DNA of 63,523 bases, filler included, from Reclinomonas americana ATCC 50394 (GCA_048213135.1; 4 parts of 2 records of this genome joined end to end with filler, not necessarily neighbours in it); one strand, 5' to 3'. Counted from the first letter of the whole stretch, positions 1-62,100 are shown. A program made the numbers and translations. Notes: generated by a model from the sequence alone, not told the origin.

Positions 1-3000
1 TTCACCGATACTCTGTCCAGCAATGGTGCCGACCATTTCGCCGGGGGTGATGATGGCCTTTTGGAAGCGCGTCTCAATCTCCTTTAGCAGCGTGTCGAAC
101 GAGTCGCGATCCAGTTTGTGTTCCTGCGCGACAAGAACAAGAATGAGTACTGCAACGATACAAAGGATGCGCTGCCAAATCACGCAACAGCAATCACGCG
201 CTTGGAGGCCAGCATGGAGCGCACGTAGATTTCGAACAGCAGCGTGGCATTGGAGCTCATTTCCACGTCCTCGATCTTGGTGACTGTCACGCGACTGCAC
301 AGCTCGCGCACCTGGTTGATAATGTACACCGGCTGCAGGTAGCTCTGCGTGTGCACCGAGATGCCGGCCTTGCGCTGCGCGTTGATAATCAGACGCTCAA
401 TGTTGACAGGCATCGGGGCCTTGCCGACACGGATGCGACCGAGGAAACGGCGATCGTCCAGCAGCTGCGCAGTCTCGGCCGCCAACTCTGCCAGTTGCGT
501 GGGGTCATTCAGCAGCTCCATGCGTACCTGCACGGAGAAAAGAAAGACAGTGAGCACCAAATCCCCCCACACGGAGACCAGAAATCGATGGAAAAGTACC
601 TCAGGCGCCAGGCACTTGCCAAAGTCGGGTCGCGGATTGTGCCCGTCGAGTTCGTATCGGTACCTCCGGTTGAATTGGCCTTCGTCCATACCGAACAGCA
701 CAATCGACACGTCCTCCAAGTGAATCGGATCCAGACCGTCCTCGCCGTACACAAACTGCAGAATGTTGCCGCCAGCGTCACGGACGGTGGCATCGTAGCG
801 CACTTGCACATCCTCCATGGCCTTGATGAGGCGGCGCTGAATGTAACCGGTCTCGGCGGTCTTGCACGCCGTATCAATGATACCCTCACGACCGCCCATG
901 GCGTGGAAGAAGAACTCGGCGGGCGTCAGGCCCTGCACGTACGAGTTGGCCACGAAGCCTTTCGACTCGGCCTCGTACACGTCCTGCTTGTAGTGCGGCA
1001 GGGTGCGGTTGCGGAAGTTGAAGGCGATACGCTTGCCCTCCACGTTCTGCTGTCCGACCGAGGCCACGACTTGGGCAATGTTGTTGATGTCGCCCTTGGA
1101 GCCGGCCGTGGCCATGGCTTTGAAGTTGTTGGAGCGGGAGAGGCGTTCAAGGGCGTGCTTGCCGGCTTGCTCGCGGGCTTCGTTGAGGGGCTGAAAAGGG
1201 GGAGGAGGGCGAGGGAGGGGGAAGGGGAAGGAGGTGGAGGGGGAGGGAAGGGGAAGGGGTGAGGGGGAAGGAGGAAGGGGGGAAGGAAAGGGGGGAAGGA
1301 AAGGGGGTAAGGAAGTAGGGAGGAAGGAAGGGAGAGAAAAGGAGAGAAGGAGAGAGTGAGTGAGTAATCGACGTACGGTAGAGTAAGAAGGGAGTGAATG
1401 CGAGTACATAGTAGAGGTCGTGATTGACANNNNNNNNNNNNNNNNNNNNNNNNNNNNNNNNNNNNNNNNNNNNNNNNNNNNNNNNNNNNNNNNNNNNNNN
1501 NNNNNNNNNNNNNNNNNNNNNNNNNNNNNNNNNNNNNNNNNNNNNNNNNNNNNNNNNNNNNNNNNNNNNNNNNNNNNNNNNNNNNNNNNNNNNNNNNNNN
1601 NNNNNNNNNNNNNNNNNNNNNNNNNNNNNNNNNNNNNNNNNNNNNNNNNNNNNNNNNNNNNNNNNNNNNNNNNNNNNNNNNNNNNNNNNNNNNNNNNNNN
1701 NNNNNNNNNNNNNNNNNNNNNNNNNNNNNNNNNNNNNNNNNNNNNNNNNNNNNNNNNNNNNNNNNNNNNNNNNNNNNNNNNNNNNNNNNNNNNNNNNNNN
1801 NNNNNNNNNNNNNNNNNNNNNNNNNNNNNNNNNNNNNNNNNNNNNNNNNNNNNNNNNNNNNNNNNNNNNACGGTGGCATCGTAGCGCACTTGCACACTCC
1901 CTCCAGTGGCCTTGATGGAGGGCGGCGCTGAATCGGTAACCGGTCGTCGGCGGTCTTGCACGCCGTATCAATGATACCCTCACGACCGCCCATGGCGTGG
2001 AAGAAGAACTCGGCGGGCGTCAGGCCCTGCACGTACGAGTTGGCCACGAAGCCTTTCGACTCGGCCTCGTACACGTCCTGCTTGTAGTGCGGCAGGGTGC
2101 GGTTGCGGAAGTTGAAGGCGATACGCTTGCCCTCCACGTTCTGCTGTCCGACCGAGGCCACGACTTGGGCAATGTTGTTGATGTCGCCCTTGGAGCCGGC
2201 CGTGGCCATGGCTTTGAAGTTGTTGGAGCGGGAGAGGCGTTCAAGGGCGTGCTTGCCGGCTTGCTCGCGGGCTTCGTTGAGGGGCTGAAAAGGGGGAAGG
2301 AGGGCGAGGGAGGGGGAAGGGGAAGGAGTGAGGGGGAGGGAAGGGGAAGGGGTGAGGGGGAAGGAGAAGGGGGAAGGAAAGGGGGAAGGAAAGGGGTAAG
2401 GAATAGGAGGAAGGAAGGGAGAGAAAAGGAGAGAAAGGAAGAGAGTGAGTGAGTAATCACGTACGGTAGAGTAAGAAGGGAGTGAATGCGAGTACATAGT
2501 AGAGGTCGTGATTGACAGCAACTGACGATGAGAGATAGCAGACGAGAGCATATGAATTAGAGAAAGCGACACCGCGTGCATGTAAGAAAGGCACATGTAA
2601 CGCACGCAGTACTGACAAGGACAGGTTGAGGAAGAAAGAGAGAGAGAAGCAATTTGACGAGTGCGTGTCATCATCTGCGACACCAGAAGAGCGGTGAACG
2701 CGAGTGCAAGGTAGATAAGGTCAAACGAGTGCGAAAGAGTATGGTAACAACCAAATCGGCACATGTGTGTTGACGACCACCTGAACATGAAATGGCGCAC
2801 GAAGCGCTAACAAATGAGAGAGAGAGGGAGGGGGGGGGGGGGGGGACAGAGACATAGAGAGACAGAGAGAAGAGGAGAGAGAAGGAGAGAGAAAACGTGT
2901 GTGTGTGCGTGTGTGCGTGTGCGTGCGTCAGAGAGAGAGCGAGAAGCCAAACGTGCTGAAGAGCGCAAAATACGTCGGCTTGATGGAAAGCGAGAGATGG

Positions 3001-6000
3001 ATAGCGAGAGAGAGAGAGAGAGAGAAAAAAACACATAAACAAGAAGATGTGCCAGCACAAGAGGAGGGTTACCAAAAGGAGGCTGCTCTCTCACTCCCTC
3101 CCGTGATCTCCCTCCCTCGCCTGCTCTTCACCCCCCACTCACCGCATTCACGAGTCGCTCAAACGACTCGAGCAGCGTCAAACCGGGCTTCGGTTCAAGC
3201 TGATGCCGCTTCAGGTTCTCAATGTGCTGCTTCACACGGTTGCGCGCCTCCTCGACAATCTCCTCGATACGCCGCTTCGTCTCATCGTCGGGCACACAAT
3301 CGCCAATGCCAATGGAGAATCCATTGTGCAGCAGCCAGTAGTTGACCACACGCTGGCAATCGCCGACGAGCTTGGCGCACACTGCCGGGCCGTACTCCAT
3401 GTAGGTGACGTGGATGAGTGAGCCGCCTGACGAACCCATGGTGTTCTTGCAGCAAATGCCCGCAATCAGTTGGCCTGCCACACAAAGGGAGAGAGTGAGG
3501 GAGATGCGCTCATGCAAAGAGACTGAGGCCATTTATACCTTGCTGAATAATGACATTGGTGTCACCGATCGAGGCGTCCGGGTCGATCACGTCGGGGTGC
3601 GATGCGTCGTCGGGATGACCCTTGGACTTGCGATTCACATTGACCGGCGGCAAGAACTACGAAGAGAGAAAGTTTAGTGGCAAGCAAGAGAGCGCATCCC
3701 TCAACACGACATCACCTGTGAAAACAGCTGCTTGCCGGTCCACAGTGGGCGCGGCTTGAGAATGGCGGGTGTCGGGATCTGTCCGTTCCAGTCGTCGACA
3801 TACATCAGGTTGTTCATGAACATGTCCTGGCGGCAACAACGGGCGTGGGTGAGTCGGGTGACCAGCCACCGTATCTCTCTCTTTCTAGTTATCCTCACCT
3901 TCTCAATAAACACATCGCGCACGGTCAGTTTGCGGCACGCCAGCAGACTGTCCTGCACAATGCCCATGACGGGACTGTTCGACTTGGGTGAAATCATGTT
4001 CTTCGGCACCATCATCTGCACATGGAGGGGTGGTGAGTGTGCGCGACACCACAATGACCCGGAAAAAGAAGCAAACCATTTCCATCAGCTCGGCCTTGGT
4101 GAGAAGGCTTTGCGGCGCGTGCAAGTTCATTTCGTCGCCGTCGAAATCGGCATTGTATGGACTGGTGACGGAGAGGTTGAGGCGGAATGTGGAGAACGGC
4201 ATGACTCGCACGCGGTGACCCATCATGGACATTTTGTGGAGGGTCGGCTGGCGGTTGAACAGCACAACGTCGTTGTCCTGCGGTAAAGGGGGTAAGAATG
4301 AGAAGGATGGGTAGGAGGAAAAGGGGGTAAGAAGGAGAAGGATGGGAGAGAAGGATGGGAGAGAAGGGAGAGAAGGAGAAGGGGAAGGATGGAAAGAAGG
4401 GGTAAAGGGGGAGAGAGAGTGTGACGGAGACGGAAGGCGGAAGAAGTGAAAGAATGTGCAACAGATGAGAGGAGGAAGAGAGAGGAACTGAGGAGAGGAG
4501 CAAAAATGACACAAACATTTCTCCGTTTCTGCTTTCAATTTCCTTTCTACACTTCTTCTTTTATTCTTCAACCCCACTGACTTTTCTTTCTTCGTTTCTC
4601 TCTCACACGCATCCTCTCGCTGCTTTTCTCAGTGTGCAAGAGAGAAAGAGTCACAAAAATGAAGACGGAGACGACAGCCAGAAGCACGAGAGTTCTGTGG
4701 AGTCTGACGGAGGAAAGGGAGTCGAACAGGAACACGACAATGGGGACGCATGAGAAGGACGAGATGCGTGGAGACTGAAGGAGAGAACAGAGGCCTCTAA
4801 GAGAGAGGCAATCGACAAGAGGCGCATTCAATCGACCTTCTCCAACAACCTTTCCCTATAAACCCACACCACGCAACTGCCAAATGCCTCTCCACAGTGT
4901 ACCCATACATCAGCGGCACGTTCGACGAGTAGCGCAGATCCTTGCGCATGCCGTCGTCGGTGATGACGTAGCGCGCGCCGGGGTGCACCTGCGGGCCGCG
5001 ATGCACGAGGTCCTGCAGACGACGAATGTTGTACTGCGTCACGACCTCGGGCACCGTCATGCGCAGCGCGACCTTGTCGGGCACACCGACTTGGTCGATC
5101 TCGATGTTGGGGTCGGCGGTGATGACAGAGCGCGCGGAGAAATTCACACGCTTGCCCATGAGGTTGCCACGAATGCGACCCTCCTTGCCCTTCAGGCGCT
5201 GTCGAATGGATTTGACAGGGCGGCCACCGCGCTTCTGCTTGGCACGCTCCAGTCCCTGCTGCTCATTGTCCATGTACGTGATGACGTGGAACTGCAGCAG
5301 CTGCTCCGTCTCCAGCAGCTGATGGGGTGGTGCTCCCGACTCCTCTTCGCGCCGCAGGTTGCGGTTGACAATGAGAATGTCGGAGAGCTTGAAGGTCAGG
5401 TCGTCTTCCGAGCGACCACCCGAGCCACCGGCCACCACCGACGGCCGGATGCTCGGCGGGGGGACGGGAAGCACGGCTGCATTTATATTTTGCTGTCAAA
5501 TGAATGCAGAGACGGATGACGGGAGAAACAAAAAAAAAACGCAACTGAGAATCATCCAGTCGGGACGAGCCTGGTCGGGGTTGAAGCCCATCATCTTGTA
5601 GGCCTCGTCGTCGACCTTGCTGAGGATTTCGTGGGCCACTTTTGGGCTCAGTCGTTCCTGTGGTGCACGACAGGAGAGGGTGAGGGAAAGGAGGAGAAGG
5701 GTGGGAGGGGAAAGAGGAGAAGGGTGGGAGGGGAAAGAGGAGAAGGGTGGGAGGGATAAGAGGAGAAGGGTGGCAGGAAAAAGAGGAGAAGGGTGGGAGG
5801 GCAAAGGGGAGGCAGGAAGAAGAGAGGAAGGGCGAGGGACTGAGAGAGAGTTGCCTTCGCTCCCCTTCCCTCTCCTATTTCACCCAGTTCACCCACCTTG
5901 GTGTGCCCACTTCCACCACCGCCGCTCTTGTACTCCACCCACAGATCCATCTTCATCTTGCGAATGTTGTGTGGGCGCTGGAAGCCACAGCCGCTGTTCT

Positions 6001-6807
6001 CCACCATGCTGGCATCAAAGTTGCCTTCGGCTTCGAGGCGCTTCCGCTCCTCTTGCTCCGCCGCCGTGTNNNNNNNNNNNNNNNNNNNNNNNNNNNNNNN
6101 NNNNNNNNNNNNNNNNNNNNNNNNNNNNNNNNNNNNNNNNNNNNNNNNNNNNNNNNNNNNNNNNNNNNNNNNNNNNNNNNNNNNNNNNNNNNNNNNNNNN
6201 NNNNNNNNNNNNNNNNNNNNNNNNNNNNNNNNNNNNNNNNNNNNNNNNNNNNNNNNNNNNNNNNGGAGAGAGAGAGAGAGTGTGTGTGTGTGTGTTTCAT
6301 TACTGCTCGCGAGCATCTCTCATGGTTGTCACAAGCCTCGTTCTCTCGTGCACCACGAACATGCTCTCACGTGCATTCACAACACAAACTCTGTAATTGT
6401 CGCTCTGCGTGTGCAGGTACGTGCGTGAGACAATGAGCGTGTGAATGAGTATTGTTGTCTGTCGCACTTACACCTGCACATGCAGCTGTCTCTTGCAACA
6501 CGTTCTCTCATGCAGTCACAGCGCACACCCTCACACTGACTGTGCGTGTGAATGCGCGAGAGACTGAGTGTGTGCATGCGTGTTGTCTCCAATCACGCAT
6601 TCCCCACATCTCATGCATGCATTCTCTGGCACCTGCTGTCTCTTGCTCTCTCTCTCACACACACTCACACTCACTCTCTCACACACTCTCTCCACTCAGT
6701 GACATGCACTGCTAATACGCAACAATCTGCTTGGGGCTGAGCACACCAAACTGGATTCGCCCAATGGCCTTCAACTCGGCCGTCGATCCATGCAAGTACT
6801 CGGTCAT
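1..6807 (-). CDS. RPB1: RNA polymerase II largest subunit, multi-exon; 3' end runs off the window, some exons lie in gaps
   Basis: First exon [28 protein letters not shown]. Motifs [43 protein letters not shown], catalytic [11 protein letters not shown], and bridge helix [35 protein letters not shown]. Confidence 0.95.
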
Positions 6808-8777: not shown

Positions 8778-11700
8778 CTAGAGCAAAGAGCATATGCCGA
8801 GATCAAAAGTGTAAAGCTGACCGCCACCCACAGCAGCCGCCAGCATGGCACCGTCGCTGCTGGAAGCCAACGCAGTCCACGCGCGATTGGAATCACGAGA
8901 AGTCCAAGTCACACCAGAGTCAGTGGAGGTGTATACATTGTCGCCATTCGCCACCGCCATCAGGTTGGTGCCGTCGCTGCTCGAGGCCACTGACGTCCAC
9001 TGGCGAGTGGCTTCGCGAGCTGTCCAAGTCACGCCAGAGTCAGTGGAGGTGTAGATCTGAATAGAACCGCCAGCAGCTACCAGATTGGTGCCGTCACTGC
9101 TGGAAGCGACCGTCAACCAGTTACGATTGGAATCACGCGGAGTCCAAGTCACGCCAGAGTCAGTGGAAGTGTAGATCTGCCCATTCTGCTCAACAGCCAC
9201 CAGCTTGGTGCCGTCGCTGCTCGATGCCACAGATCGCCAGTGCCGATTAGAATCACGAGCGGTCCACGTCACGCCAGAGTCAGTGGACGTGTAGATCTGA
9301 TCTGGATTCACCACGGCCACCAGCTTGGTGCCGTCGCTGCTGGAGGCAACTGATGTCCACTGGCGATTGGATTCACGTGCAGTCCATGTCACACCAGAGT
9401 CGACGGACGTGTAGATCAGACCAGGGTTCACCACAGCTGCCAGCTTGGCGCCGTCACCGCTCGAGGCTACCGCTGTCCATTGGCGACTGGTCTCGCGAGC
9501 GGTCCACGTCACGCCAGAATCAATAGAGGTATAAATGTTACCAGGGTTCACCACGGCTGCCAGCTTGGTGAAGTCACTGCTTGAGGCCACAGATCGCCAG
9601 TTGCGACTGACCTCACGAGTACTGGAAGGGCGAGCAATGCATGACAACCCTTGTACAAATAACAAAGTCAGCGACTGCGCACAGTGAAGACGCGATTAGG
9701 AACAATAGCACTACTCACCGGTGCATGGACTCATGCAGATGCACAATCCATCAGTGCCACAGATACCGTTTCCATAGCACGTCGTGGCCGCCACACAGTT
9801 CGCATTGCACGATGCACCGTAATAGTCAGCATCGCACAGACACGTGCCGTCAGTCTTGCACGATCCGTGACCGGAGTACGTGATGCTGGGACTGCAGTTG
9901 CAGTTGGCATTGGTGTAGTCGCCAGTGCACTGGCATGAGCCGTCAATAGGGCTGAATGTGCCGTGGTAAGAGCACACAGAACATATGCTTAGATCGACAG
10001 TGTAGATCTGGCCTCCACTCACAACAGCCACCAGTTTGGTGCCGTCACTGCTGGAGGCCACTGATACCCAGTTACGGATTGAATCAAGAGAAGTCCACAT
10101 CACGCCAGAGTCGGCCGTGGTGTATATCAGACCACTGTTCACGACAGCCGTCAACTTGGAGCCGTCACTGCTGGAGGCCACCGATCGCCATTGGCGATTG
10201 GACTCGCGAGCTGTCCACGTCACACCCGAGTCAGTGGAGGTGTAGATCTGCAGACTAGTTCCGGTAGCAACGAGCTTGGTGCCGTCACTGCTAGAGGCCA
10301 CTGACAACCAGCTTTGAAAGGGGTCACGAGTCGTCCACGTCACACCAGAGTCAGTGGACGTATGCAGCCCGCCGCCGGCCGCCGCCACAGCCACAAGCTT
10401 GGTGCCGTCACTGCTGGATGCCACTCCAGTCCAGTTGCGATTGGATTCACGAGCAGTCCACGTCACACCAGAGTCAGTGGACGTGTAGATCTGACCTGGA
10501 TTCGTCACGACCACCAGCTTTATGCCGTCATCGCTGGAGGCTACTGAGTTCCAGTTGCGATTGGATTCACGAGCCACCCAACTCACGCCAGAGTCAGTGG
10601 AAGTGTAGATATGACCGCCAAGCACACCAGCCACCAGCTTTGTGCCGTCACTACTGGAGGCCACTGACAGCCACTCGCGATTGGACTCACGAGTCGTCCA
10701 AGTCACGCCAGAGTCGGTAGAAGTGTAGATCTGGCCACCGTTCACCACGGCTGCCAGCTTGGTGCCGTCACTGCTGGAGGCCACTGCAGTCCAGAATCGA
10801 TTAGAATCACGAGCAATCCATGGGCTGGTCGAGCACGACGATCCTGCGCACATCAACACAATCAGCGATCGCGCGCGCAGCGAAGGTGAATTCGGGACCA
10901 GAAGCAAACTCACGCACTCACCACTACATGGACTCGTGCAGCTGCACGTTCCATCGATGTTGCACGTTCCATGTCCAGAGCACGTGACAGTGGGACTGCA
11001 GTTGCAGCTGGCATTGGTGTAGTCGCCAGTGCACAGACAAGTGCCGTCACTCTTGCATGTTCCGTGACCAGAGCACGTCGTGGCCGCCACACAACTCACG
11101 TTGCACGAGGCACCGTAATATTCAGCGTCGCACTGGCACAGGCCGTCAGTCATGCACGCTCCGTGTCCCGAGCACGTGACGCTGGGACTGCAGTTACAGT
11201 TGGCATTGGTGTAGTTGCCAGTGCACTGACATGTGCCGTCAATGGGGCTTAATGTGCCGTGGTCAGAGCATACCGAGCAAGTGCCGAGGTTTAACGTGTA
11301 AATATTGTGACCACCCACGGCCACAAATCTTGTCCCGTCACTGCTGGAGGCGACTGACAGCCAGGTACGGATTGAATCAAGAGAAGTCCACGTCGCACCA
11401 GAGTCAGTCGACGTGTAAATTCTGTCAACATTCACCACGGCCACCAGCTTGGTGCCATCACTGCTGGAGGCCACTGCAGTCCAGAGACGACTTGAATCGC
11501 GAGCCGTCCACGTAACACCAGAGTCTGTGGACGTGTATAGCCGACCAGAATTCACCGCAGCCACAAGCTTGGTGCCATCACTGCTGGAGGTCACCGACAC
11601 CCACACGCGACCGGAATCGCGAGCTGTCCACGTCACGCCAGAGTCAGTGGACGTGTAGATCTGACCGTTGTTAGTAACAGCAGCCACCAGCTTGGTACCG

Positions 11701-14700
11701 TCACTGCTGGAGGCTACCGACACCCACGCGCGACTAGAAGCGCGAGCTGTCCAAATCACGCCTGAGTCAGCAGACGTGTAAATATTTCCAGGATTCGCAA
11801 CAGCCACCAGCTTTATTCCGTCGCTGCTAGATGCCACTGCAGTCCAGTTACGACCAGCATCACGAGCCGTCCAAATCACGCCAGAGTCAGCAGACGTGTA
11901 AATATTACCAGGATTCACAACAGCCACCAGCTTGGTTCCGTCACTGCTAGATGCCACTGCAGTCCACACGCGACTTGAATCGCGAGCCATCCACGTCACA
12001 CCTGCGTCAGCAGACGTGAAAATATTACCAGGCTTCACAACAGCCACCAGCTTGGCTCCGTCAACACTCGAGGCCACTGCAATCCAGTTGCGACTCGAAT
12101 CACGAACAACGGAAGAGCTGACTGCGCACGAAGGCCCTGTGTACGATTACAATATCAGCGACAGCGCACGACGAACTCACTGACAGGACCAACTGCACCA
12201 CTCACCAGTGCACGGACTCGCGCAGATGCACGAACCGTCGGAGCCACAGGTACCGTGTCCAGAGCACTTGGCAGTGGGACTGCAGTTGCACCTGGCGTTG
12301 GCGTAGTCGCCCGTGCACTGGCATGTGCCGTCAGCCTTGCATGTTCCGTTGCCAGAGCACGTCGTAGCTGCCAAACAGTTCACAGTGCACAAGGCACCGT
12401 AGTAGTCAGCGTCGCACAGGCACGTTCCATCGATGTTGCACGTTCCACGTCCAGAACAGGTGGTGGCGGGACTGCAGTTCACATTACACGATCCTCCATG
12501 ATAGTCAACATCACAATGGCACGCGCCATCAATGTTGCAAGTTCCATGTCCAGAGCACGTGACAGTGGGACTGCAGTTGCAACTGGCATTGGTGTAGTCG
12601 CCCGTGCACTGGCAAGTGGCGTCACTCTTGCACAATCCGTTGCCAGAGCACGTCGTGGCTGCCACACAGTTCTCAGTGCACGAGGCGCCGTAGTAGTCAG
12701 CGTCGCACTGGCATGTGCCGTCAGTTTTGCAAGTTCCGTGACCAGAACAGGTGGTAGCGGGACTGCAGTTCACATTACACGATCCTCCATAATAGTCAGC
12801 ATCACAATGGCACGCGCCATCAATGTTGCAAGTTCCGTGACCAGAGCACGTGGCAGTAGGACTGCAGTTGCAGCTAGTGTTGGTGTAGTCGCCATTGCAC
12901 TGGCATGTACCGTCATTCTTGCACATTCCGTTACCAGAGCACGTCGTGGCTGCCACACAATTCACAGTGCACGAGGCACCGTAATAGTCAGCGTCGCACT
13001 GGCACGTTCCATCGATGTTGCACGTTCCATTGCCGGAGCACGTCGTAGCAGCCACACAGTTCACAGTGCACGAGGCACCATAGTAGTCAGCGTCGCACTG
13101 GCACGTTCCATCAACATTGCATGTTCCGTGACCAGAGCACGTGACAGTGGGACTGCAGTTGCAGCTGGCATTGGTGTAGTTGCCAGCGCACTGGCATGTG
13201 CCGTCAGCCTTGCATGTTCCGTGACCGGAGCACGTGGTGGTGGGACTGCAGTTGCAGTTAGCATTGGTGTAGTCGCCCGTGCACAGGCATGTTCCATCAA
13301 CATTGCATGTTCCGTGACCAGAGCACGTGACAGTGGGACTGCAGTTGCAGCTGGCGTTGGTGTACTCGCCAGTGCACAGACACGCGCCGTCACTCTGGCA
13401 CGTTCCGTGACCGGAGCACGTGGTGGCCACCACACAGTTCACATTGCACGATCCTCCATAATAGTCAGCGTCGCACTGGCACGTGCCATCGATATTGCAT
13501 GTTCCGTGACCGGAGCACGTGGTGACCGGATCGCACGACGACTCACACGTGCCGAGCGCACAGCTACCAGAGCAGCAGTCACCACCAGTCGAGCACGCAC
13601 CACCCAATGCCAAGCAACCGCATCGCGCTGTACCGTTCGCCTCAAAGCACTCGCGACCCTCGGCACACTGCGCGACGATCTGAGTGGTGCCATAGACACA
13701 GCTCAGCAACTCACGTCGATTCAGTGAGCACGTCGTGGTGCCGTCTGGCAGCGTGCACACGCCGCAGTCGGAACCACTGTAGCCGGCGGGGCACGAGATT
13801 GGCGCGCCTTGCGCCGCACGACCAGTTGCCACCCACGTCACGTACTCCACGTCCAACGCATCCGCCCCGCTGGCGTTGAAAGAGATCGCCGTCACATAGT
13901 CCTCGTTGCCGAGGCGCTTGGTGGTGAACTGGAGCGACTGCTGATCGATGCGGTTCTGCACAATGACTGCCGACGACTTCCACCCACGCAGGAACAGCTG
14001 CACGCTGATGGTCGCACGTAGCAGACCATTGGGGGTCGACGCCGTCACCAAACTGGCTGTCTTTGTCACTGTACTGCTGGTGTGTGTTGTTTCTGCACCA
14101 CAAAACAATGGGTCAACAAAGAATAACATGGTGCGCAGCGTCTCAAAAAAAAGAGAGAGGGGAAAAGGTGATCGCACCACCCGAAAGCATGACAAATCCA
14201 CTGTTGTTGGTGCTGTCGGTGCGCGCCGGTGCCACAGCAAAGCGCGCACACACCGCCCCCATGCGTGAGTCGCCGCTCACCGTCCCCTTGACGACAAAAC
14301 TCGACCGCGAGGCTGAGCTGCTTGTCACCGAAAAGTTGTCGCCGCGAACGCGACCATCGTCACTATCACTCGACTGCCGCATCGACAGCACACCAATGAC
14401 GGCCACCGGAATGGTTGGCACCGATGCAAACTGGTACGTAGACGACACACTCAACAGCTACGAACCGTCAGCGGGTCAATCAACACGATTGCACACAACC
14501 GCATCGCACGACCAAACCACGCAACAGTCGAACTGCTCTTGTTCACCGCATCCGACAACCACGACTTGCTCGTCAGCGTGCGCTGACCATCCACTGACAG
14601 AGCATTCGTCTGGTGCACGTAGTACGCCAGGTAGCCTGCAGGCGAATGATGAGTCACACTTCCTCTCACACGTCTCCTCCGCCACCTAACATCGCCAGTG

Positions 14701-50913: not shown

Positions 50914-53900
50914 ATGAACACCGACGACGGAATGCTGCCTCTGGTGGCGGAGCAGCAGCAGCCGCGGGATCCGCTCGCCGCTGAGCAGCCGCCAAATGAA
51001 CCAGAGAATCATCCGTTGCTGTTGCAGCCAGTGGAGGGACTGCTCCGCACGCAGGTTCGGAGAGAGCAAAAGGACGATCTCTCTCGCCACTGTGTTCACA
51101 ATCCTCTCCTGTGTGTGCGTGGGCAGATCTGGAGGCTGATTCACACGGCCGCTGGCGCAGTGGGCGGGTCCACGTCACGGGCGGCGTTTGCGTCGCGTCG
51201 CTTTGAGACTTCTGTGCGCATTTGCATCGTTGTTGATCATCAATCATCCTGCTGCTGCTCATTTGTGTCGAGCAGGTCTCGCTGCTGAAGGGTCTCCCGC
51301 AGCGCCGCATCTCGCAGGCGGTCAGTCAGTGGTGGTTCAACTCCTCCAAGGGCATGGTGTACGTTGAGTAGCGTGTGCGAGTGCACAGATCGCTCACCCC
51401 GAATTGCATAGCTCATCTCAGTTGGTGCGCAGGATTGGTTGTACCTGACGACTGTGGCGTTGTCGGTGGTGTTGTACGTGTACTGCACGTACAACACCGA
51501 TTCGTTGACGTTGCGTGCGAGCGTTTGGTGGTCACATGGGTGACGGGGTGTGTGCTGACAGAGTGGAATGGGCCAGATCATTGTGGCTGAGAATCTTGGA
51601 GTTGTACATTGCGACAGTGTTTGTGGCCGACTTTGTGTTGCATGCACTCATCGCGCGTCGCTTGTGCGTGGCGTGCTCCCGCTAGTTATCAATGTGCACG
51701 TTGCATTCATCGCCTTTGTGCAGGCGACTGTTCCTGCTGAGCGTTACCGGCATTGGGGATTTCATCACTCTGTGGCCAGTGTTGCGTCGTAACTCGTTTA
51801 TTGTTGCGTGGGGTGACAGTGTCCAATGCGTGTGTGTGCTGACGGCACAGGGTGCTGGTGTGGGCAACCGATGTGAGCGGCGTTTGGGGTCTGCTGTGGC
51901 GACTGACCAGCGTCCCGCGGATTGTGCGATTCTCTCGCCTGCAGCGAGTGTTCCACAGAAGAGGCCTGGATATCGAGAGCTGTTGCGTCTTCCTGATTCT
52001 TCGGGGGCGACCACGTCTATAGTATCGCCCACTGACGGGCACTTCTCGACACGCAGCCATCGCTCTGCAGGTGCAAGTGCTGGCCTTCACCGTCGTCTGC
52101 ATTCTCTTCATTGCTGCTGGTGCCTTTCAGGCCGGTTCGTTTGGGGGATTGTGTGTGTATGTCTCCAGCTTCCTCCTGTGCTGCTTACGCGAATACGACT
52201 GGCAGTGGAGATTTTCTGGGACGGCATTATAGTCACATTTCTACAAGCGGTGTACTTTACTGTCGTGACCATCGCCACGGTCGGCTACGGCGACATCTCA
52301 CCGCAGGTTCCTCTTTTGCCCATCGTCTCCGTGTAGTAGTGGTGGTGCTTGTCGACTCATGTGTGCATCGCTGGCGGCAGACCAATGTCGGGCGCGTCCT
52401 CGTGATTCTGTTCCTCCTGACCGTCATCATCATCATTCCGCTGGAGACGAACCGCTTGTTTTCCATCATCTCCGAGACCAATCGTTGCGTGCCACGACCA
52501 AATCAAATTATCTGCTTTCACTTTTGTGTGATTGACTGAGAGACGCGAATACAGGTTACCGCCGCAAAGCGGTAATTCGGCGCGGTCATCAGCATGTATT
52601 GGTCACGGGGGATATCGGTACCGCCAACATTGTGCGCTTCACACGCGAGTTCTTCCACTCGGCACACGGCACACAGCGCCTGCAATTGGTATTCCTCGCT
52701 ACTGTGAATCCGTCGACGGAAACAGAAGTTGTTGCGTGTGCGCGTGCGATTGCTTTCGTCGTCTCTCACGTTGCACGAGTTAACTGAGCTGTTGGGTTCT
52801 TGGCTAGCTTTTCTTCACGCATCCGCACGGAAACCTGATGCAGTACGTGCTGGGATCTGCTGTCTCGCCTGTCGATCTACGTCGCAGTGCAACAGCAGAC
52901 GCGGTAGCGGCATTCGTGTTTGTGGATCGACTGTCACCGAGGCTCGCCGACAGTGATGCGATGAACTTTCTCCGCGTCGCCGCCATTCGCAGCACCAACG
53001 ACATTTGCCCCATATTTGCGCAAGTGACCTTGCCGCAAAACAGGGTGCGCATGAGAGCGGGAGATTTTTGTTCTCCCGCACTCCTGTACTCATGTGTTTG
53101 TCGCAGAAACACCTGTTGGCGGCAGGCGCCACTCAAGTCGTGTGCATCAACAGTCTCAAAATGGTTCCTTCAAACGCCACCGATGTGTATTTATTGCGAT
53201 GCTTACTCGTGCTCCTTCATCCTGCAGAGCATTCTTGCTCGTAGCTGCCTGTGCCCGGGCTTTTGTGCATTCGTCAGCAATCTGATGAAATTCGACACCC
53301 CATTCAGCCACTTGGACGGCGACAGCTGGGAGGAGGAGTATGGTTGCGTGTTGTTCGCTCACTGTCGCTGCCGTATTGTCATCCCCTCATGCTGCCGGTG
53401 CTGTCACACAGCGCACGGCTACGCTCATGAGATTTACACGACTTCATGGCCGAAATCCATGCACGGAGTCAGCTACGGCGATGCAGCGTCGGTGCGTCAT
53501 CCTTGTGTAATCTGCACATTCATTCGTGCGTGATTGCGCACTGACTGCGACTCTTTGACGACAGTACCTTTACGCCAAGTACGCTGCCATTCTCCTGGCA
53601 GTCACCGGCAGCATTCGCGACCCGCAGAAGAATTATGTTGCCTACGTGCGTCGACAACGAAGCGCACCACTTGCCACCACACAGGCCATGAGCATCTCAC
53701 TCATTCTTTGCATGTAGCGCACAATGGTGGCACCGCCTTCTACTCTCGTGTTGGAAGCCGGTTATAGATGCACGCTGATTGCTGCAGATGCGTCAGTCGC
53801 GCTGAGCATCGCGTTCGACACCCACTTTGAATCCGTGAAGGGGAATCATCGCCGTGCCTCTCTCACCCTGAACCGTACACCACCAGGTGCGTGTCGAGAC

Positions 53901-56900
53901 GAGTACCCATCCCCCTGTGTGATCGTTCACTCATCACGTGCATGCGCACAGTTTCCTCTGAGTCGACCCTGTCTCGGGAGAGTCGTGGTGGTTCTTTCGT
54001 TCTACCCCCGGCACCGGTCACTCGCTCGCTGCAAGATGACCCAGAGCTGCTTCTGGCTGTTCGGTCATCTGAGCACCACGTTGCTGGTTTGCAGCATGTT
54101 TTCCTTGCTTCTTTCGCTTTCTCTTGCGCACTGACTTTCCTCTGCCGTAGCGGTGGAAAAGGAGCAGATTCGCAGGTCGGCCGAGTATTTGAACGAGGCG
54201 GCCAAGCTCAGCGTACCGTTGCGTCACTCGACGGCTGCATTATGCTTCCGTGCACTTCTCACCACTCCTGGGAAACAGCGTGCATCTTCTTGCTGCTCGC
54301 TATGCGCTCTTGCCACGCATTCGGTCTCTGAAGGAAAGTGTGGTGGAATTCATGCCGCTGGAGATGATGGATCATATTCTGGTGCGTGTTTTTTGAGGGT
54401 GAACGATGGTGTTGAGTGGTAGACTGACTGTGCCCAGTTGTGCGGTCCGCTCGCCAACGTGGTCCACTTTGTGCTACCACTGCGGTCATTCACCCTCGGT
54501 TCTTTGGACGCACTCGTCGACATTGTTGTGCTCACTCCGCACCTTCCAACTGGTTCGCCTCTGAGCATCCTTTCGTGTGCGTAGCCTGTTGCTCACCGTC
54601 GCCACGCGTCCTGCAGCTGACGAGTGGGCGCCTCTGTCGGTGCTTCCCAAGTTGCATGTGGTGGTGGGCGATCCGCGCGGTGAGTGGCACTGCGTACTTG
54701 GCTTGCGCACTGCCTGTTAATCTCCTTTTTTCCTGTCGTTAGAACGCACGGATTTGCAGCGATGCAACGCGAGAGTGGCCAAGTCGATTGTTGTTGCGTC
54801 ACTCTGCCAAGTAGTGGTGAAGAAGAGCGCATTTGGCGATCTCCTCCTTCTCACCGCCGAGTGCATGCACAGATTTTGACGAGCACGCACTTATCGGGAG
54901 ACTCATCGTCTGTGTTGGAAGCCGGTGTCGATGATCACGACACCATCTTGACGCAGCTGCAGCTGGTTCAGTCGTACTCGCTCGAGAAGTTTGTGCTGGC
55001 CGACATTGGTGCGAACCGAGTAAGACAAGTCGTGACGTGTGTGTGTGTATATTTCTGTTTCTCACGGGGTTTTTACTTGCAGGTCATGTTTCCAGTCTGA
55101 AGTTCTTGAGACCAACCGTGCACGTCACAGTGGAAAAAGCGAATGCTGCTTTGCCGTTGCGTTTGCCTTGCGCCTGCTGCTCACGAATACTGTGATCTGC
55201 TTCATAACGTCGGTCGACAGTTTCGGCAAAGCCCAGAACAAGGTGCTGCCGGTGCTGGCCGCCGGTAGAGCCTACGTGAGCGACACCCTTGACAATCTCA
55301 TGTGCATGGTCAGTGTTTTCCGCTGATCCATGTCACTCTCAGTGCTGTCTCATGGTCTTCGTTGCAGTCGTTCTACACGCCGTCGGTGCTGCCGCTCATC
55401 GAACACATGGCCGGTCTCGTAGACGCCTGTATCCACGACTTCTCCATCCCCCAGGGCAACATGTACAGTTTCCCGTGTCCTGAGGGGCTCGTTGTTGCGT
55501 CGCAATGTTGCGGCATTGTGTTGCGTGGGGTCTGACTGACTTCTTCTTGGCGAACAGGGCCGGTCATTCCGCGACGTGTTCGATACCATGATGCAGGTGT
55601 ACGGCATCCTCGTCGTTGCGTTGTATCGACGAAAGGACGGATGCCAACTGCCGTACGTCTTCACTTGCCCGCCGAAGAATACCGTTGCGATTCAGCATGA
55701 GTGTGTGCGCACACGGCGGTTGATATGTTGGACTCACGTGTCACCGCTCTGCTCTTGGCATGCAGGTTGTACACCAGCAAGATCACCTAATGGTCCTGTC
55801 GCGACTTCCACCATCCGCACTCGACTTGTCGCTTGTGGACGGTAACGCAGGCTGTGGTGACCCAGGCGCGCCATTTGTCCGCCGGTGTGCAAGTGTACGC
55901 GATGTGGCTGCGTCGCCAGCTACACGCCTACTTCGACGGCGTCACACGGACAAGATGTTTGCCGGTCTAGAATACGTGAGTGATGACACAGCGTTGCGGG
56001 AAAGTGGTGCGTCTGCTTCCCGCTGTGCGACTCCGGTGCGAGCATCTGGTGGACAGCAGCAACGGTTTGCAAACGTTGTTTTGTACGGAGAGACTGTGGA
56101 AGGACTCATCATTCACCCCTTATATTCGTGTAGGCAATCGGGCACGCAGTCGTCCCAGTCGACGCCAAGTCACGCCCACGCACGGCGGACCATGTCCGAC
56201 ACGGATGTGAGCGAGCGCCCCTCCACGCCATCAATGGCGTCCAGAGCAAGCGCGGTCGGGCCTCCTCCTCTCAGCAGCGTAACATCGCCGACCAAGTCAA
56301 TGGAGACGACGGCGCCGATACTAATGCCGGCACTGCATCGATCGCGGGATGTGTTGATTGGTGGCGGTGCCAGCGGCCACACTGTGCGTGTCCGGCGGCC
56401 CCTCGGTGCTCCAGTTCCGTTATTTTCCCGGCTCTTCACGCTGCGTATAACGTGCTCACCTTCTCTGTGACGACAGCTGCACGGCGCAGCGATGACGTCT
56501 GCCCTCGAGGAAGCCGATGATTGTGGCTGTGGATCTGGCCATGTGGAAGTACCCCTGCCGCATGACCCGGCGTACGAGACGTGGCTGGGTGTGGTCTCTC
56601 CGACAAAAGGCGACGGCTGTGCGTCTGCGGCGGCGGACGAGGCGGAGACAGTGCCGAAGCGGGCGCCCAGCCCGCTGCAGCTACCGCGTACCGAGTCACT
56701 GCCTGCGTCTTCACCGGTGCTCTTTTCGACCCCGCACAGCTCGCCCCTTCTTGCGAGAAGGCGCCAGAGTCGCGCTCTGGCCGCCGACGGCTCATCGTCA
56801 TCGCCACCGTCGACACCGGAAGTAGTTACAACTCCTGCCGCCAGTGGCGCTGATGCAACTACTCCACGCTTTGTAGTGGTGCACGTCGAAGACTTCGATA

Positions 56901-56962: not shown

Positions 56963-57226
56963 AGCACGTCGTTGTCACGAAGGAGAGCGCCCGCTCACTG
57001 TGCGTCGGCGATGACGCGGTGGTGGTGGTAGAAGAGCATTGTTAATGTATAATCAAATTTGCGATGATGGGGAACTGCGCAACTCATCGCAGCGCCAATT
57101 GTGTTCGATTTCTCATCCTCCGTTCTTCTGTGAGCGAAAGAGTGCTGACTCGCGACAACACGCCACGTGTGTGTGTGTGCACCTGGGAAGGGCAGAGGCC
57201 TGTGAGCCGAGTCGCGCGCGCCTCTC

Positions 57227-57300
57227 ATGCGGCAGCAACCGTTGATCAGCTCGCGTCGAGCGTTGACGAATCAGGTGTGTGTGCACGCGTGTGTGTGCGT

Positions 57301-57331
<31 letters not shown>

Positions 57332-58946
57332 TGTGCATGTGCGTGCGTGCATTCATGTGCTTGGGGGAAAGAAGCACACGTGTGTGTGAGAGAGTATCAG
57401 ACTGGATGAATCATACTTTTTCTCCCTTCATCTCTCGCCCTCCACTCCCCGTCAGCTTGTTCTCTGGCTCATACACCTCCCTTTCCCTTTCACAAACCAT
57501 CGCTTCTCACATCGATGCACACCTCACACATCAATGTTGCGACAATGCAAGATTTGGCAAGTTGTGCGCTTTGCCGCCGGAGGAGTCGGAGGCCAGGCGA
57601 ACCGCAGTTATGCTGGGCGTCGAGTTGACACATCGGTGCGCGTGCGCGTAGTTCCTCCTTCAAAGGCGGCGGTCATTTCTTTTGGTTCTCAAATGCGTGT
57701 CTCGTCAACAGGTCGCTCTTCTCGACCTCCGACCCACCAGCTTTCAGGTGCGGCTGCGCAGGTTCATGGCGCATTCCACCTTTGGGTTAATCTATGTTGC
57801 GTGGTGCTTGGGTACTGTCGAAGCGCCTGCTGCGAGACTGACACAGGCTGGTCACAGGATATCGTTTTGATGGCGCTGGCGCTCTGGGCCGTCATCCAGT
57901 ACGTGTGGTCTACGTATGAGCCCGGCTACTATGAGTTTCGCAGTACCTCTGTGTGTGTGGGAGAGAGACGTCAAGTAGGCCACGCTTTCGCTGTGCATCT
58001 CACCTCCACAATGCAGCGTTCCGTGGGTGCGGATTGTTGAAATCTTTCTGGTGTGCATCTTCGGCTTCGACGTGGTGTTGCAGTTCTACATAGCAAGGCG
58101 GCGGTTCGTGTGCATGTATGTGAGTCGCACACTGTGGTTGACACGCACGCTGAGTCACCATGTCACAGCTGGTGGTACTTGTCGACTCGAGGACTTGCCG
58201 ACATTCTCAGCATTGTGCCCAGGTAATTCGCACGCGCGCCTCTACACAATCCCCGCTCTTGCCCTCACACTCGCGAACACAGTGTGGTGTTCTTTGCTAC
58301 GGGAAATCGCTCCGTTCAGCTGTACTTCCTGCGTGTGCTCCGCCTCCTGCGTTTGATGCGCCTGTTCCGCTTGAGCCGACGCCGCACGTTCTACACACGT
58401 CGCGATTGGTCCCAAAAATGTTCGTGTGTTGCCTCACGCTCACCTCCTCCGTCGTGACAGCAGCGTTGTTACTTACACTTTCTACCCGCTTACCGCGCAC
58501 TGTAGCTGTGGCCGACGAACTTCTCAAGTTCGTCTTTGTGATCTTCTGCCTAATTTTCATCACCGCCGGTCTGATCCAGACAGGTTCGCGCAAAAGGCCT
58601 TGACTTCTCTCTTTATGCCCAAGTTAGCGATTTGCTCACATATATATATGCTTGTGTCGCCTGTGCAGTCGAGGATGCCTTCAATGGCACACAGATGACC
58701 TTCCTCCAGGCCGTGTACTACATTGTCGTCACCATTACGACTGTCGGCTATGGTGACTTTACGCCCAAGGTGTGCGTGTGTCACAGCGAAAATCTACTCT
58801 GGTCTGTCTCTCACAACCGTCTGTGTGTGTGGCATGCGGACAGACGGAACTCGGCCAAGCAATCATCATTGTCTTCATTCTGACGGCCATTTCGTTGCTG
58901 CCAGTGTTGACCACGCAGCTGTTGAATGTCATGGCGCTCACCAACA
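57227..58946 (+). CDS. Second tandem Slo/BK-family K+ channel, truncated by the scaffold end
   Basis: S4 FLRVLRLLRLMRLFR, pore AVYYIVVTITTVGYGDFTP. The N-terminus and most intron positions match the upstream paralog. Confidence 0.88.
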
Positions 58947-59065
58947 GTTGCGAAACTAGCGTGCAATAGCGCACCTCTCTCTTCCCTTACCTATGCATGT
59001 GCGTGTGTGCACGCTCGCGGGNNNNNNNNNNNNNNNNNNNNNNNNNNNNNNNNNNNNNNNNNNNN

Positions 59066-59077
59066 TTAATTAATTAA
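59066..59077. other. Artificial scaffold linker
   Basis: TTAATTAATTAA within N runs. Confidence 0.95.
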
Positions 59078-59121
59078 NNNNNNNNNNNNNNNNNNNNNNN
59101 NNNNNNNNNNNNNNNNNNNNN

Positions 59122-62100
59122 GCCACTTGGTCGCTCGGTCAGCTGGAGCTGAACGCGCCAGTGGTGAACGAGGCGAAGCGAGTGCCGGCAGTGGAGATCC
59201 ACGCCAACACGATGTGGGTGCAGTCGTACACGCAGTTCAAGCTCGGCACTGACCAGCTTGGTCCTGGATATCGCACTCTGAATGTGCAGACGTACGCGGA
59301 GAATGNNNNNNNNNNNNNNNNNNNNTGTTGTCCGTGAAGAACTGCACTAGTGGAATGCGGTTTCCGCTGCCGAGGGCGTCAACTCCAAAGATTGCGCTCA
59401 CAAATGCTTCCACGTTGAGCGCATTCACATGCATCTCCAGCAGCGGGATTCGCAACTGCTCCGGATTCGCCACAGCGGCGTTCGAGTGCACACCGAACGA
59501 CGCCTTGGTGCGCGCCTTGAGCAAGTAGGTGCCACTGTAGATGCTGAACGTCGGAATCGGATTGTAGAACGGGGAGGCTGCATAGTCTTGCCCGAACACA
59601 GCCGAAGTCCGCATCACCATGCTAAATGTGTCGCCTGACATCGAAGTCGAAGTGGCATAAGTATCTGCATTTGTACCAGTCAATCAGTCAACGTGTTGCG
59701 GCGAGAACAGGAACAAGAGAAGACACACGACAGTCCGCAACTGAGAGCCGGAATCTCGGCCGCCAGTGATCCAAGCTGCATGACAGAGCTAGAATAGGCC
59801 GTAAACTTTGTTGTCTCAAAGTCTACTTCGTTGGTCCACACGGTGAATTTCGGGTTGGGTGCGCTCGAGTTACCAAACTGCGGCAAAAGGGAGGCAATGC
59901 ATCAGCACAGGAGCAAGCGGGCGCCAGCGCGGTGACCGACTGGTACACACCGTCACCAAATTGTCCGAGTCAAACTCCATCACCGGCGAGCGGACAGTCA
60001 TCGTGCTCGCAGCCGCCACCACCATGTTCGCCGTGGTAACCGGTGAGCCAAGCAGCACCGTGGGCGCGACTGCACTAATAGATGTTGATGTAGAGATGGA
60101 CAATGTCTGCACATTTGCGAGAAGGGTACAGGGTTGGAGACGGCGCACGCAGACGGCAAGAGACGGAAACACATGTGTCATACCTGGCCCTCCATGGTGA
60201 TGGTGTTTGTGGACGAAGGACTACCGAGCCGGATAGACGGGCTGACCAAGTTGTAGACTGTCGGTTGCACAGTGTGCGTTCCACCGCCGATGGTGGCGGT
60301 AGTGGCGGACACTGTCAACGTCGACGCAGTGACACTCGCCGATGTGGTGCTGTTGAGCGTGAAGATGGGCACCGTGAGGGCAGCCGACGTGCCAAAAGTG
60401 CTCGTGGAGACCTTCAGTTGTAGCCATGGTTAGCACAACAACAAGGAACAAAGGGAAAGAGGGGACGACGACACACACCAGCGCGCGTGTCATGAGCGTG
60501 GCAGTAGTCGGAGCGCCAATGTTGACAGCCGACGACACTTGCGTGCCAATGTTTGTGGTGGGCGCATCGACGAGCACCTGCGTACCGCCGCTGATGTTGA
60601 TCTGTTGTTCCATCATCAAAATGTGAGACGCACAAGGCAAGCACAACACACATTGCCGCAGCACAACAAACCGCGTCACAAAGCAACGAGAGTGGAAACG
60701 CTGCGCCACTGGCGATTTCGACAGAGCAACCAGAGCGCGCCAGGCGCACACCCGTGGATGACAGCAGCACAGTGCTCGGTGTCGCGCCGGTGACTTGCAG
60801 GGTAATTGGCTGCGATGACAGCAGCGACACCGTGTCGGTGGCCGTCAGCGCAACTTGCCCGACAGTGGCCTATGCACGCGCACAGACACCAACATGAGAA
60901 AAAAACAGCAGCACGGTAGAACCCAAAAAGACTGCGCACAACACCAGCGTACCGTCACTTTCGTCGGTGCCGAGATCACCAGACTGGCGGTTTGCAGCGA
61001 CAGCAAGTTGTTGCTCGTAACACCCAGATTGTTGGTGGTGGCAGCAGAGCCGAGAGACATGACCGGCGCCACCGAGGAGTACGAGTTGTTGAACTGTCCA
61101 TCCCAGGCACTGGCTCTGGCCACTATATTGGTGCTGGCTGGTGTTCCAATATTCACCGCCGTACCGTACATGTTGAGTGCGGAGACGGTAAATGTGTAAG
61201 CGCCACCCGTGAAGTTCGCAGAAGTGGAGGCGGCCAGCGAAAAAGCAGCAGTCGTGAAGCTGATGGAAGTCGGCGATGTCAACGAAAACGTCGGAGCCGA
61301 CAGCTGAAGCGAGGACCCAGCGGTCACGCTGACAGCCAGGCCGCGAATCGACACGGACGCCGTCGAAATTCGTCCAACATTGACTGTGGTGGACAGCGAG
61401 TTGCCGACGTTGACCAGAGCACCATCAAGAGCGGCGCTGGTCACAGCCGTGACGCCAATCTGCACACGCAAATGCGTGAGAAAAATACTCTAAGCGCAGT
61501 GATTGCTGAAAAATACGCACCGTATCACAAGCGAGCTGCATCGGAACTGCAGCATCACTCAGCACAATGCTACAGGCATCGCGGCTGATCTGAATCGAAG
61601 CCGTGGAAACCGCAATGGTGTCGATAGGTGACACGCCAACGGAAACGCCAAACGAGCCAGCGACGGACGAGAATGTTGTTTGCTCAGCAAACACACTGGC
61701 TGTGGGAACAGGGACTGCCGCACTGCCGATTTGCACAATGGTGGAGCCCTGCATGCACGTCGGTTGAGGTTCAGCAACCAACCCAACTTTCAACAAAGCG
61801 GCGAGAAAAAAATGGGCACACGACTAGCGCACCATAAGAGACACATTGTCGCCAGAGAGGGAGATCTTGTCGTTACTCGTCAGTGCAATGTTGGTTGTGC
61901 GCGACACATCACCAATGGTGAACGTGCCGGCGACCGAGGTCCACGATGTGGCGATTGAGGACGACCACACTTGCGAGTTGACAGCAATGCTCGTGGTGGT
62001 CCCATTCAGTCCGAGAGTAATATCGCTGGCATGAAGACGCAACGTCACCGGATTGACCGTATACAGATTACCACTACGCGAGAATAGTGCTGATGAGAAA

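Follow-up and report, generated by a model that had tools for sequence, protein, structure and literature searches.

The +1 shifted register, in which U1 small nuclear RNA (snRNA) pairs one base deeper in the intron, has been established experimentally at rare human 5' splice sites (Roca and Krainer 2009, as presented in the available part of PMC4856993), and all validated non-canonical registers together account there for 1.5% of 201,541 human 5' splice sites. The same partial source covers bulge and asymmetric-loop registers (Roca et al. 2012; Tan et al. 2016). We analyzed one stretch of DNA from Reclinomonas americana ATCC 50394 (GCA_048213135.1), 63,523 bases long with 20 masked N blocks (4,138 N) and termed the window below, and identified in it a class of GT-AG introns whose donor (5' splice site) reads GTTGCGT and whose last exon base (position -1) is rarely G. 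The class is documented by an excess of the motif, exact cut sites, the statistics of position -1, T at +3, a phase bias and conservation between paralogs. In the motifs below a slash marks the cut and H any base but G; donors starting with GTTG form the GTTG class, and all others are termed ordinary.

The donors of the window resemble the human +1 shifted sites, as far as that source describes them, in that GU is cleaved, the putative U1-complementary block lies one base deeper, and G+1 would replace G-1 in the helix. They differ in abundance: the human sites are rare, whereas about 28 excess sites were counted here in about 59 kb, and the share of donors in the class ranges from 8 of 59 (in a run with a flat donor matrix) to 25 of 72, that is, from one in seven to one in three. 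The motifs differ too, being a displaced AAGU block with U1 genetics in the human case and a near-invariant GTTGCGT here. The bulge and asymmetric-loop registers, in the same account, likewise have one extra nucleotide between GU and the complementary block, at +2/+3, but keep the canonical pairing from -1 to +2; in the window G is not favoured at -1 and the extra base is T only.

A shifted U1 register has also been speculated on for a lineage-specific donor class in the tunicate Fritillaria borealis (bioRxiv 10.1101/2025.08.15.670264), whose introns, in the accessible portion of that preprint, are non-GT, whereas the sites of the window are GT-AG with a defined motif. Diplonemid donors are given as (G)/GTATG in the available part of PMC12621601, and for Andalucia godoyi the part of PMC7050145 at hand reports introns in only 12% of surveyed genes. 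With ordinary U2-type GT-AG introns that show dependencies between position -1 and the intron, the introns of the window share their termini, a CTSAY branch-like motif 10-40 nt upstream of the acceptor and short length; unlike those graded dependencies, the one found here belongs to a single 7-mer and goes with a consensus displaced by 1 nt. A full-text literature search gave no description of a GTTGCGT donor class among the hits listed, judged by title and start of abstract; a consensus that appears solely in a logo or a supplement would escape it.

Motif excess, cut sites and the last exon base

Cut sites were fixed by homology in RPB1 (the largest subunit of RNA polymerase II) and in the first of two Slo/BK-type potassium-channel paralogs (Slo-1). 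All frame-compatible, stop-free junctions ending in AG near neighbouring homology blocks were enumerated, and the spliced RPB1 peptides were scored against 6-8 homologs with no use of the donor motif beyond GT; GT or GC donors were admitted in one round and GT only in the other. The Slo test used the same enumeration with 10 remote homologs taken from an exhaustive protein search. On the minus strand, the best GT-AG junctions of RPB1 at GTTGCGT were A/GTTGCGT at 5539-5545 (intron 5545-5477, 69 nt, best of 9 junctions), A/GTTGCGT at 4871-4877 (intron 4877-4278, 600 nt, best of 6 frame-compatible junctions, 8 homologs) and T/GTTGCGT at 182-188 (intron 188-124, 65 nt, best against 6 homologs, gene-finder signal 12.9). 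On the plus strand those of Slo-1 were C/GTTGCGT at 52484-52490, T/GTTGCGT at 52731-52737 (intron 52731-52807) and G/GTTGCGT at 53343-53349, the last being the sole verified exception with G at -1. The exons flanking the intron at 52731 match positions 3-48 and 58-118 of the Slo-like_RCK profile (Pfam). The homology-fixed ordinary donors are the homology-refined RPB1 sites between 3137 and 4076 on the minus strand (4076 G/GTTTGC, 3898 G/GTGAGG, 3715 G/GTGATG, 3538 G/GTATAA, 3142 G/GTGAGT) and the Slo-1 sites 53045 (G/GTGCGC), 53164 (G/GTTCCT) and 53492 (G/GTGCGT); the Slo junction at 52307 stayed unresolved in this test. Thus, G at -1 is found in 1 of 6 homology-fixed junctions of the GTTG class versus 8 of 8 ordinary ones (Fisher p=0.003).

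The motif was also counted on both strands with no gene model, expected counts being taken from 100 dinucleotide-preserving shuffles. GTTGCGT occurs 40 times versus 12.38 +/- 3.69 expected, a count reached in none of the 100 shuffles, and the base preceding these sites is T in 19, C in 11, A in 8 and G in 2. HGTTGCGT was observed 38 times versus 9.41 expected (0/100 shuffles reach 38), and its counterpart GGTTGCGT twice versus 2.33 expected (70/100 shuffles reach 2). The whole excess thus lies in HGTTGCGT, so that the approximately 28 sites above chance carry essentially no G at -1. The hexamer GTTGCG was counted 78 times versus 50.7 expected; since this excess (about 27) equals that of GTTGCGT, the functional unit is the 7-mer including T at +7. 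Alternatives at +3 show no excess (GTCGCGT 10 versus 14.0 expected, GTAGCGT 3 versus 3.6), T alone being enriched, and GTCGCG was rejected as a second shifted form. For comparison, GGTGCGT was found 24 times versus 11.6 expected (1/100 shuffles), and HGTGCGT 76 times versus 45.4, a count inflated by TG-rich simple sequence (TGTGCGT). Where homology or Pfam anchors a gene (RPB1, EGF-like, eIF2B-epsilon and the two Slo genes), GTTGCGT lies 23 times on the sense strand and once on the antisense strand.

A larger set of introns was obtained by a frame-aware dynamic programme run on both strands. A training set of 29 introns, curated or fixed by homology, supplied its models of length, acceptor, branch and donor (+3..+8 only); its intron score ignores exon bases, and the reversed sequence served as the null. 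The programme called 56 introns at a score of at least 6 (4 in the null) and 72 at a score of at least 4 (14 in the null), a false-discovery rate of 7-19%. The programme chains genes through long low-scoring 'introns' that the score filter removes, and it makes known errors (e.g. 51896, 58215). Self-trained gene finders, which drifted to spurious long introns, a signal-only expectation-maximization run, which collapsed to 12 introns, and open reading frame (ORF) bridging alone, for which the reversed sequence gave half as many hits as the real one, were dropped.

At a score of at least 4, G at -1 was found in 3 of 35 GTTG-class donors versus 22 of 37 others (p=5e-6), and at a score of at least 6 in 3 of 30 versus 16 of 26 (p=6e-5); GTTGCG donors alone have it in 2 of 25 cases and GTGCGT donors in 5 of 6. 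Among donors with T+3, G at -1 is present in 3 of 35 when +4 is G but in 9 of 11 when it is not (p=9e-6). The sequence-only reading had claimed about 32 GTTGCG donors with a single -1 G, at 53343. In agreement with it, 31 of the 78 GTTGCG sites are called as donors, with T12, C10, A7 and G2 at -1, the two G sites being 53343 and 49190, a doubtful call inside a 424-codon open frame. Its further statement that most ordinary donors carry this G holds for the whole set and for the homology-fixed junctions alike; in RPB1, where it cited seven such donors, five ordinary donors with G at -1 and three GTTGCGT donors were confirmed. Several ordinary T+3 donors (GTTCGT, GTTCCT, GTTTGC) were noted, always with G at -1.

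The two families share a block that is offset between them. Ordinary donors with G at -1 (n=22, score at least 4) have G12/T9 at +3, C12 at +4, G18 at +5 and T15 at +6, while the GTTG class (n=35, same score) has C29 at +5, G26 at +6 and T28 at +7. The GCGT block therefore occupies +3..+6 in the former and +4..+7 in the latter, exactly one base displaced, and G/GTGCGT and /GTTGCGT align with a one-base difference, as had been noticed from the sequence. In both classes there is little signal at exon positions -2 to -5, and intron lengths are similar (medians 71 and 65 nt). At -1 the GTTG class (T15, C10, A7, G3) has a spectrum near that of the window before GTTG (T 42%, C 23%, A 21%, G 14%), so position -1 looks unconstrained rather than selected for pyrimidine. 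The suggestion that the last exon base of this class needs no G is thereby upheld, the excess being confined to HGTTGCGT. The phases differ as well, phase 2 being used by 12 of 35 shifted donors versus 3 of 37 ordinary ones (p=0.009), as would be expected if ordinary donors need an exon G, a base seldom found at codon position 2.

As a check with no coding or donor model, every GT was ranked by its best downstream score for branch, acceptor and length. With rising 3' signal, the fraction with G at -1 climbs for GTGCGT from 0.18 at sites below the median to 0.42 in the top decile, and for GTT[CT][CG][TC] from 0.13 to 0.37, whereas for GTTGCGT it is 0.07, 0, 0 and 0.07 over the four bins, with 14 of the 40 sites in the top decile. 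That the whole pattern is an artefact, the sites being no donors or the -1 bias a local dinucleotide effect, is hardly credible to us. The low frequency of G before GTT across the window and the false-discovery rate of the gene finder would fit it, but the threefold motif excess lies on the sense strand, junctions were fixed by homology, the spliced frames are open (214 and 230 codons, see below), and the contrast is with other donors of the same genes, not with background.

The introns themselves are of the ordinary type. All curated ones have GT-AG termini, and the frame is restored on their removal, as the open spliced Slo models demonstrate. The shared signals are a branch motif CT[G/C]A[C/T] and a YAG acceptor; in 24 curated introns the branch-like 7-mers contain CTGAC, CTCAC, CTCAT or CTTAC, 9-42 nt from AG. 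U12-type (minor) introns are characterized by an RTATCCTT-type donor and a TCCTTAAC-like branch site. They were ruled out here, as the donors are GTTGCGT and the branch motifs CTSAY, like those of the other introns of the window. Introner-like introns were ruled out by all-against-all blastn of 28 GTTGCG introns, which gave matches in just 4 pairs, 14-31 nt long; a single 19-nt match between two long gene-finder 'introns' bearing CT repeats accounts for 86 of the 94 hits.

Donor class in the Slo paralogs

The two Slo genes lie on the plus strand at 51.2-57 kb (Slo-1) and 57.5-59 kb (Slo-2). Single exons match the Pfam families Slo-like_RCK, BK_channel_a and Ion_trans_2; for the Slo ORF a word-indexed protein search gave no match, and an exhaustive one gave 40 remote homologs. 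Spliced models of their N-terminal halves are open over 214 and 230 codons and align with 37% identity (score 340 versus -4.7 +/- 15 for shuffles). All eight paired introns keep their phase, including those with a change of donor class. The two members share an alignment column in five pairs, lie no more than two columns apart in two, and are separated by 12 columns, in a gapped region, in one. The 1-nt intron sliding envisaged by the sequence-only reading was thus not seen in any of these eight paralogous introns.

Two positions use a GTTG-type donor in both paralogs. The first follows a Tyr codon, where G would make a stop codon, and reads tac/GTTGAGT in Slo-1 (51363-51369) and tat/GTTGCGT in Slo-2 (57796). 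The second, at the S6/RCK boundary, reads atc/GTTGCGT in Slo-1 (52484) and aca/GTTGCGA in Slo-2 (58947). The -1 base differs between the paralogs at both (c/t and c/a). At column 83, agt/GTTGCGT of Slo-1 (51781-51787, phase 2) pairs in the same phase with cag/GTAATT of Slo-2 (58223). Among the other paired positions, two are ordinary G/GT in both genes and one joins T/GTGCGT with T/GTGCAT. Donor class is thus a conserved property of the position, tracks the -1 base and can switch with the boundary unmoved.

Further Slo-1 donors of the class, supported by the gene finder and the paralog map, are C/GTTGCGT at 51510-51516 (phase 2) and T/GTTGCGT at 51982-51988 (phase 1). Downstream, between 54218 and 55690, hand curation and gene-finder signals of 8.0-11.6 support C/GTTGCGT at 54218, T/GTTGCGT at 54793, C/GTTGCGT at 55156, T/GTTGCGT at 55494 and C/GTTGCGA at 55684. 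The ordinary donors of Slo-1 with G at -1, within 52135-55314, are 52135 and 54553 (GTTCG), 52307 and 53164 (GTTCCT), 53045 (GTGCGC), 53492, 53887 and 54382 (GTGCGT), 54087 (GTTTGC), 54680 (GTGAGT), 55009 (GTGCGA) and 55309 (GTCAGT). This G was present in 11 of 11 ordinary donors in the first hand curation and in 12 of 14 after three additions; the two without it, according to curation, gene finder and paralog map, are T/GTGCGT at 51664 and C/GTGCGT at 53646. The Slo-2 donors (57796-58953, spliced model and paralog alignment) also include T/GTGTGT at 57953, T/GTGCAT at 58110, C/GTCGCG at 58399, G/GTTCGC at 58584 and G/GTGTGC at 58770.

Some copies of the motif in Slo-1 are not donors. GTTGCGT at 55615-55621 lies in coding sequence, where read-through keeps the frame and yields a peptide that presumably resembles a conserved C-terminal segment of Slo. 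Introns contain multiple copies of GTTGCGT (51781 and 51803) and of GTTGCG (55494, 55507 and 55520, at 13-nt spacing); use of the extra copies at 51803, 55507 and 55520 would shift the frame. These intronic copies could be back-up or decoy binding sites.

Reading of the heptamer

The donors of the window can be described as two families of one heptamer, with the consensus G/GTGCGT and H/GTTGCGT, of which the second would be read by U1 in the +1 shifted register, a reading that we regard as evenly poised between right and wrong. In this model one 5' splice-site reader, presumably U1 snRNA acting through its 5' end at the commitment step, would bind the heptamer G[G/T]TGCGT in both families, and cleavage, set later by U6, U5 and Prp8, would fall just ahead of the heptamer's first GT. 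Intron G+1 of the second family would then fill the slot of exon G-1 and U+3 that of U+2; GCGU would form the same pairs as in the ordinary family, and U+3 would pair with the A otherwise bound to U+2. Such a U1 would need a 5' end complementary to UGCGU, for instance with ACGCA replacing ACUUA. The last exon base would then be released, and introns could sit where the coding sequence offers no G, e.g. after a Tyr codon or in phase 2.

That the same footprint is cut in two registers had been proposed from the sequence and is partly supported. The one-base displacement, the T-specific +3, the loss of G at -1 in the GTTG class alone and the use of phase 2 all agree with this proposal. With a standard U1 5' end (taken from a table in PMC4856993), the mean best energies of 25 GTTGCG donors are -0.22 kcal/mol in the canonical, -0.45 in the shifted and -0.50 in the bulged register, compared with -5.95 kcal/mol for ordinary donors with G at -1. 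The pairing gain on shifting that had been expected is thus negligible with a standard U1, a result close to contradicting the original proposal, and appears only with a hypothetical adapted U1 in which GC replaces two pseudouridines (shifted -7.1, bulged -6.1, canonical -0.2 kcal/mol).

A bulged-nucleotide register would leave both the cut and the register unshifted. U1 would pair with G+1 and U+2 canonically, U+2 or U+3 would bulge, and pairing would resume on GCGU. It gains from the adapted U1 nearly as much as the shifted register does, and with G at -1 it would even be slightly the better of the two (-11.0 versus -10.3 kcal/mol, hypothetical U1). Bulge registers, moreover, outnumber the shifted register in human, as far as the available parts of PMC4856993 and PMC9311317 go. 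The bulged register, however, frees C9 of U1 for the exon, so that G at -1 should be favoured as in ordinary donors; this retained preference was not found (3 of 35). The bulged base should also tolerate C or A, and neither is enriched, although a bulge migrating within the UU pair could still explain the preference for T. We therefore prefer the shifted register to the bulged one, since the latter would leave C9 free for a -1 G that is not selected and since only T occurs at +3; neither argument is decisive, and we consider a bulge unlikely.

A separate reader, i.e. a second U1 variant, another RNA or a protein complementary to GUUGCGU and acting in the ordinary register, would make the two families two independent signals. 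This possibility draws on the 7-mer being conserved far more strictly than ordinary donors and pairing poorly with standard U1 in any register, and the pyrimidine-rich -1 (30 of 40 sites T or C) could reflect pairing to a purine. The near-background spectrum at -1 (T19, C11, A8, G2), on the other hand, requires no such pairing, two readers would leave it to chance that the motifs differ at one base and that their blocks superimpose on a 1-nt shift, and paralogous introns change class at a fixed position. We rate a separate reader as rather improbable.

Dependencies between the last exon base and intron positions are well known in other eukaryotes. By analogy, a strong match on the intron side might simply make G at -1 dispensable with the register unchanged, as the GTGCGT donors at 51664 and 53646 that lack this G could suggest. 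Such compensation is distinctly improbable: GTGCGT donors with the same intron-side block keep the G (5 of 6, and a rise to 0.42 with the 3' signal), while GTTGCGT, being almost without an intron-side match in the canonical register, would need it most.

A number of observations weigh against the shifted reading of the heptamer by U1. Since standard U1 pairs negligibly with GTTGCG donors in every register, the model needs a changed U1, which is hypothetical, or a reader other than U1; on the modelled pairing, a standard U1 would not explain the strict conservation of C+5 and G+6. Even with the adapted U1 only about 1 kcal/mol separates the shifted from the bulged register, and G at -1 still stabilises both, so that the calculated thermodynamics alone would not explain the absence of this G. 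Beyond the heptamer the families do not match, A being found in 8 of 22 ordinary donors at +7 and in 1 of 35 shifted donors at +8. Ordinary donors lacking G at -1 do exist (51664, 53646 and 3 of 6 in Slo-2). GTTGCG was abundant among the introns used to train the donor matrix, and a flat matrix weakens the contrast at -1 (3 of 14 versus 23 of 45, p=0.07) in a run with high noise (13 null per 59 real introns), in which GTTGCG nevertheless remains the most frequent donor hexamer (8 of 59). Furthermore, G precedes any GTT in only 15.7% of cases, against which 2 of 40 gives p=0.039, and the Poisson probability of at most two GGTTGCGT ranges from 0.048 to 0.002 with the assumed background (14-20% G in the window or 29% in coding sequence, i.e. 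6.3 to 10.5 expected). The depletion of G at -1 below background is thus marginal; the robust part is the contrast with ordinary donors, i.e. the absent enrichment of this G, which is solid. Finally, the data are confined to a single window of 63.5 kb, of which 4.1 kb is masked.

Other features of the window and implications

The window comes from an intron-dense eukaryotic genome with short GT-AG introns (length mode about 65 nt). RPB1 occupies the minus strand from about 6.8 kb down to position 1; blocks of RPB1 homologs align along it, and its catalytic NADFDGD motif lies at 4154. The closest RPB1 proteins (jakobid, Naegleria, plants) share 50-53% identity, and no close relative was found among metagenome contigs (34-38%). 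In the 5' region of RPB1 a candidate donor T/GTTGCGT (6717-6723, minus strand) has the motif on the sense strand but is not called by the gene finder. Two minus-strand stretches, 1922-2314 and about 830-1187, flank the N block 1430-1869 and align to the same RPB1 residues (e.g. P0004 706-840 and 722-1033), and the plus-strand context gcagggtgcg/GTTGCGGAA is found at both 1008 and 2102; the repeated stretch is a local duplication or an assembly artefact.

An EGF/teneurin-like gene (8781-16400, minus strand) contains exons of 699 and 811 codons that are rich in teneurin-like EGF repeats (Pfam) and whose unusual length contrasts with the 30-80-codon exons of the Slo genes. Its donor T/GTTGCGT at 14519-14525 (minus strand) opens a 68-nt intron (gene-finder signal 9.7). 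Other predicted donors on the minus strand are A/GTTGCGT at 14702-14708 (73-nt intron, signal 11.7), A/GTTGCGT at 15621 and T/GTTGCGT at 16072 (15615-16072; signals 5.2 and 5.5), and C/GTTGCGT at 43000 and A/GTTGCGT at 43112 (42994-43112; signals 7.4 and 12.3). On the plus strand C/GTTGCGT at 44717-44723 precedes a 62-nt intron (signal 11.8).

The window also encodes eIF2B-epsilon and one Nse4-like ORF (Pfam). The BUB3 gene named in the sequence-only reading was not located, Pfam searches of 30 long ORFs giving EGF/teneurin, eIF2B-epsilon, Nse4 and weak matches only. No Rfam family reached its gathering score in a scan of the window, no snRNA appeared at E<=5, and a tRNA search of the window found none. 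At about 37900-38115, on both strands, many unrelated Rfam models (Hsp83 3' untranslated region, several microRNA precursors) match far below their thresholds, and this segment is probably a palindromic or simple repeat. ORFs on the minus strand at 59327-63520 encode repetitive Thr/Ser/Ala/Val-rich peptides, with no Pfam match for the two ORFs tested; they may belong to a surface-repeat protein gene with about 13 introns. Simple repeats, (GA)n and (GT)n/GTGCGT-rich, occur at 57290-57330 and elsewhere, both intergenic and intronic.

The shifted register was already known at rare human sites; what the window adds is a major donor class with its own motif that may be read in this register. In model organisms, only a few atypical sites and engineered U1 mutants have served to study the uncoupling of U1 binding from the cut. 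A genome with both registers, often in one gene, would be a natural system for the handover of the cut site from U1 to U6 and U5, and it also bears on the co-evolution of the U1 5' end with the donor consensus and on the limits that G at -1 sets on intron positions in coding sequence. Gene finders with a single donor matrix that includes the last exon base would misplace or miss the GTTGCGT class. It can be speculated, with somewhat more doubt than belief, that this lineage uses the +1 shifted register throughout its genome as a standard means of marking introns, and that co-evolution has adapted the 5' end of U1 to UGCGU. If so, cleavage by the spliceosome would as a rule fall one base upstream of where the U1 helix would place it, and introns could enter coding positions that are otherwise closed to them (phase 2; after Tyr, Asn and His codons).

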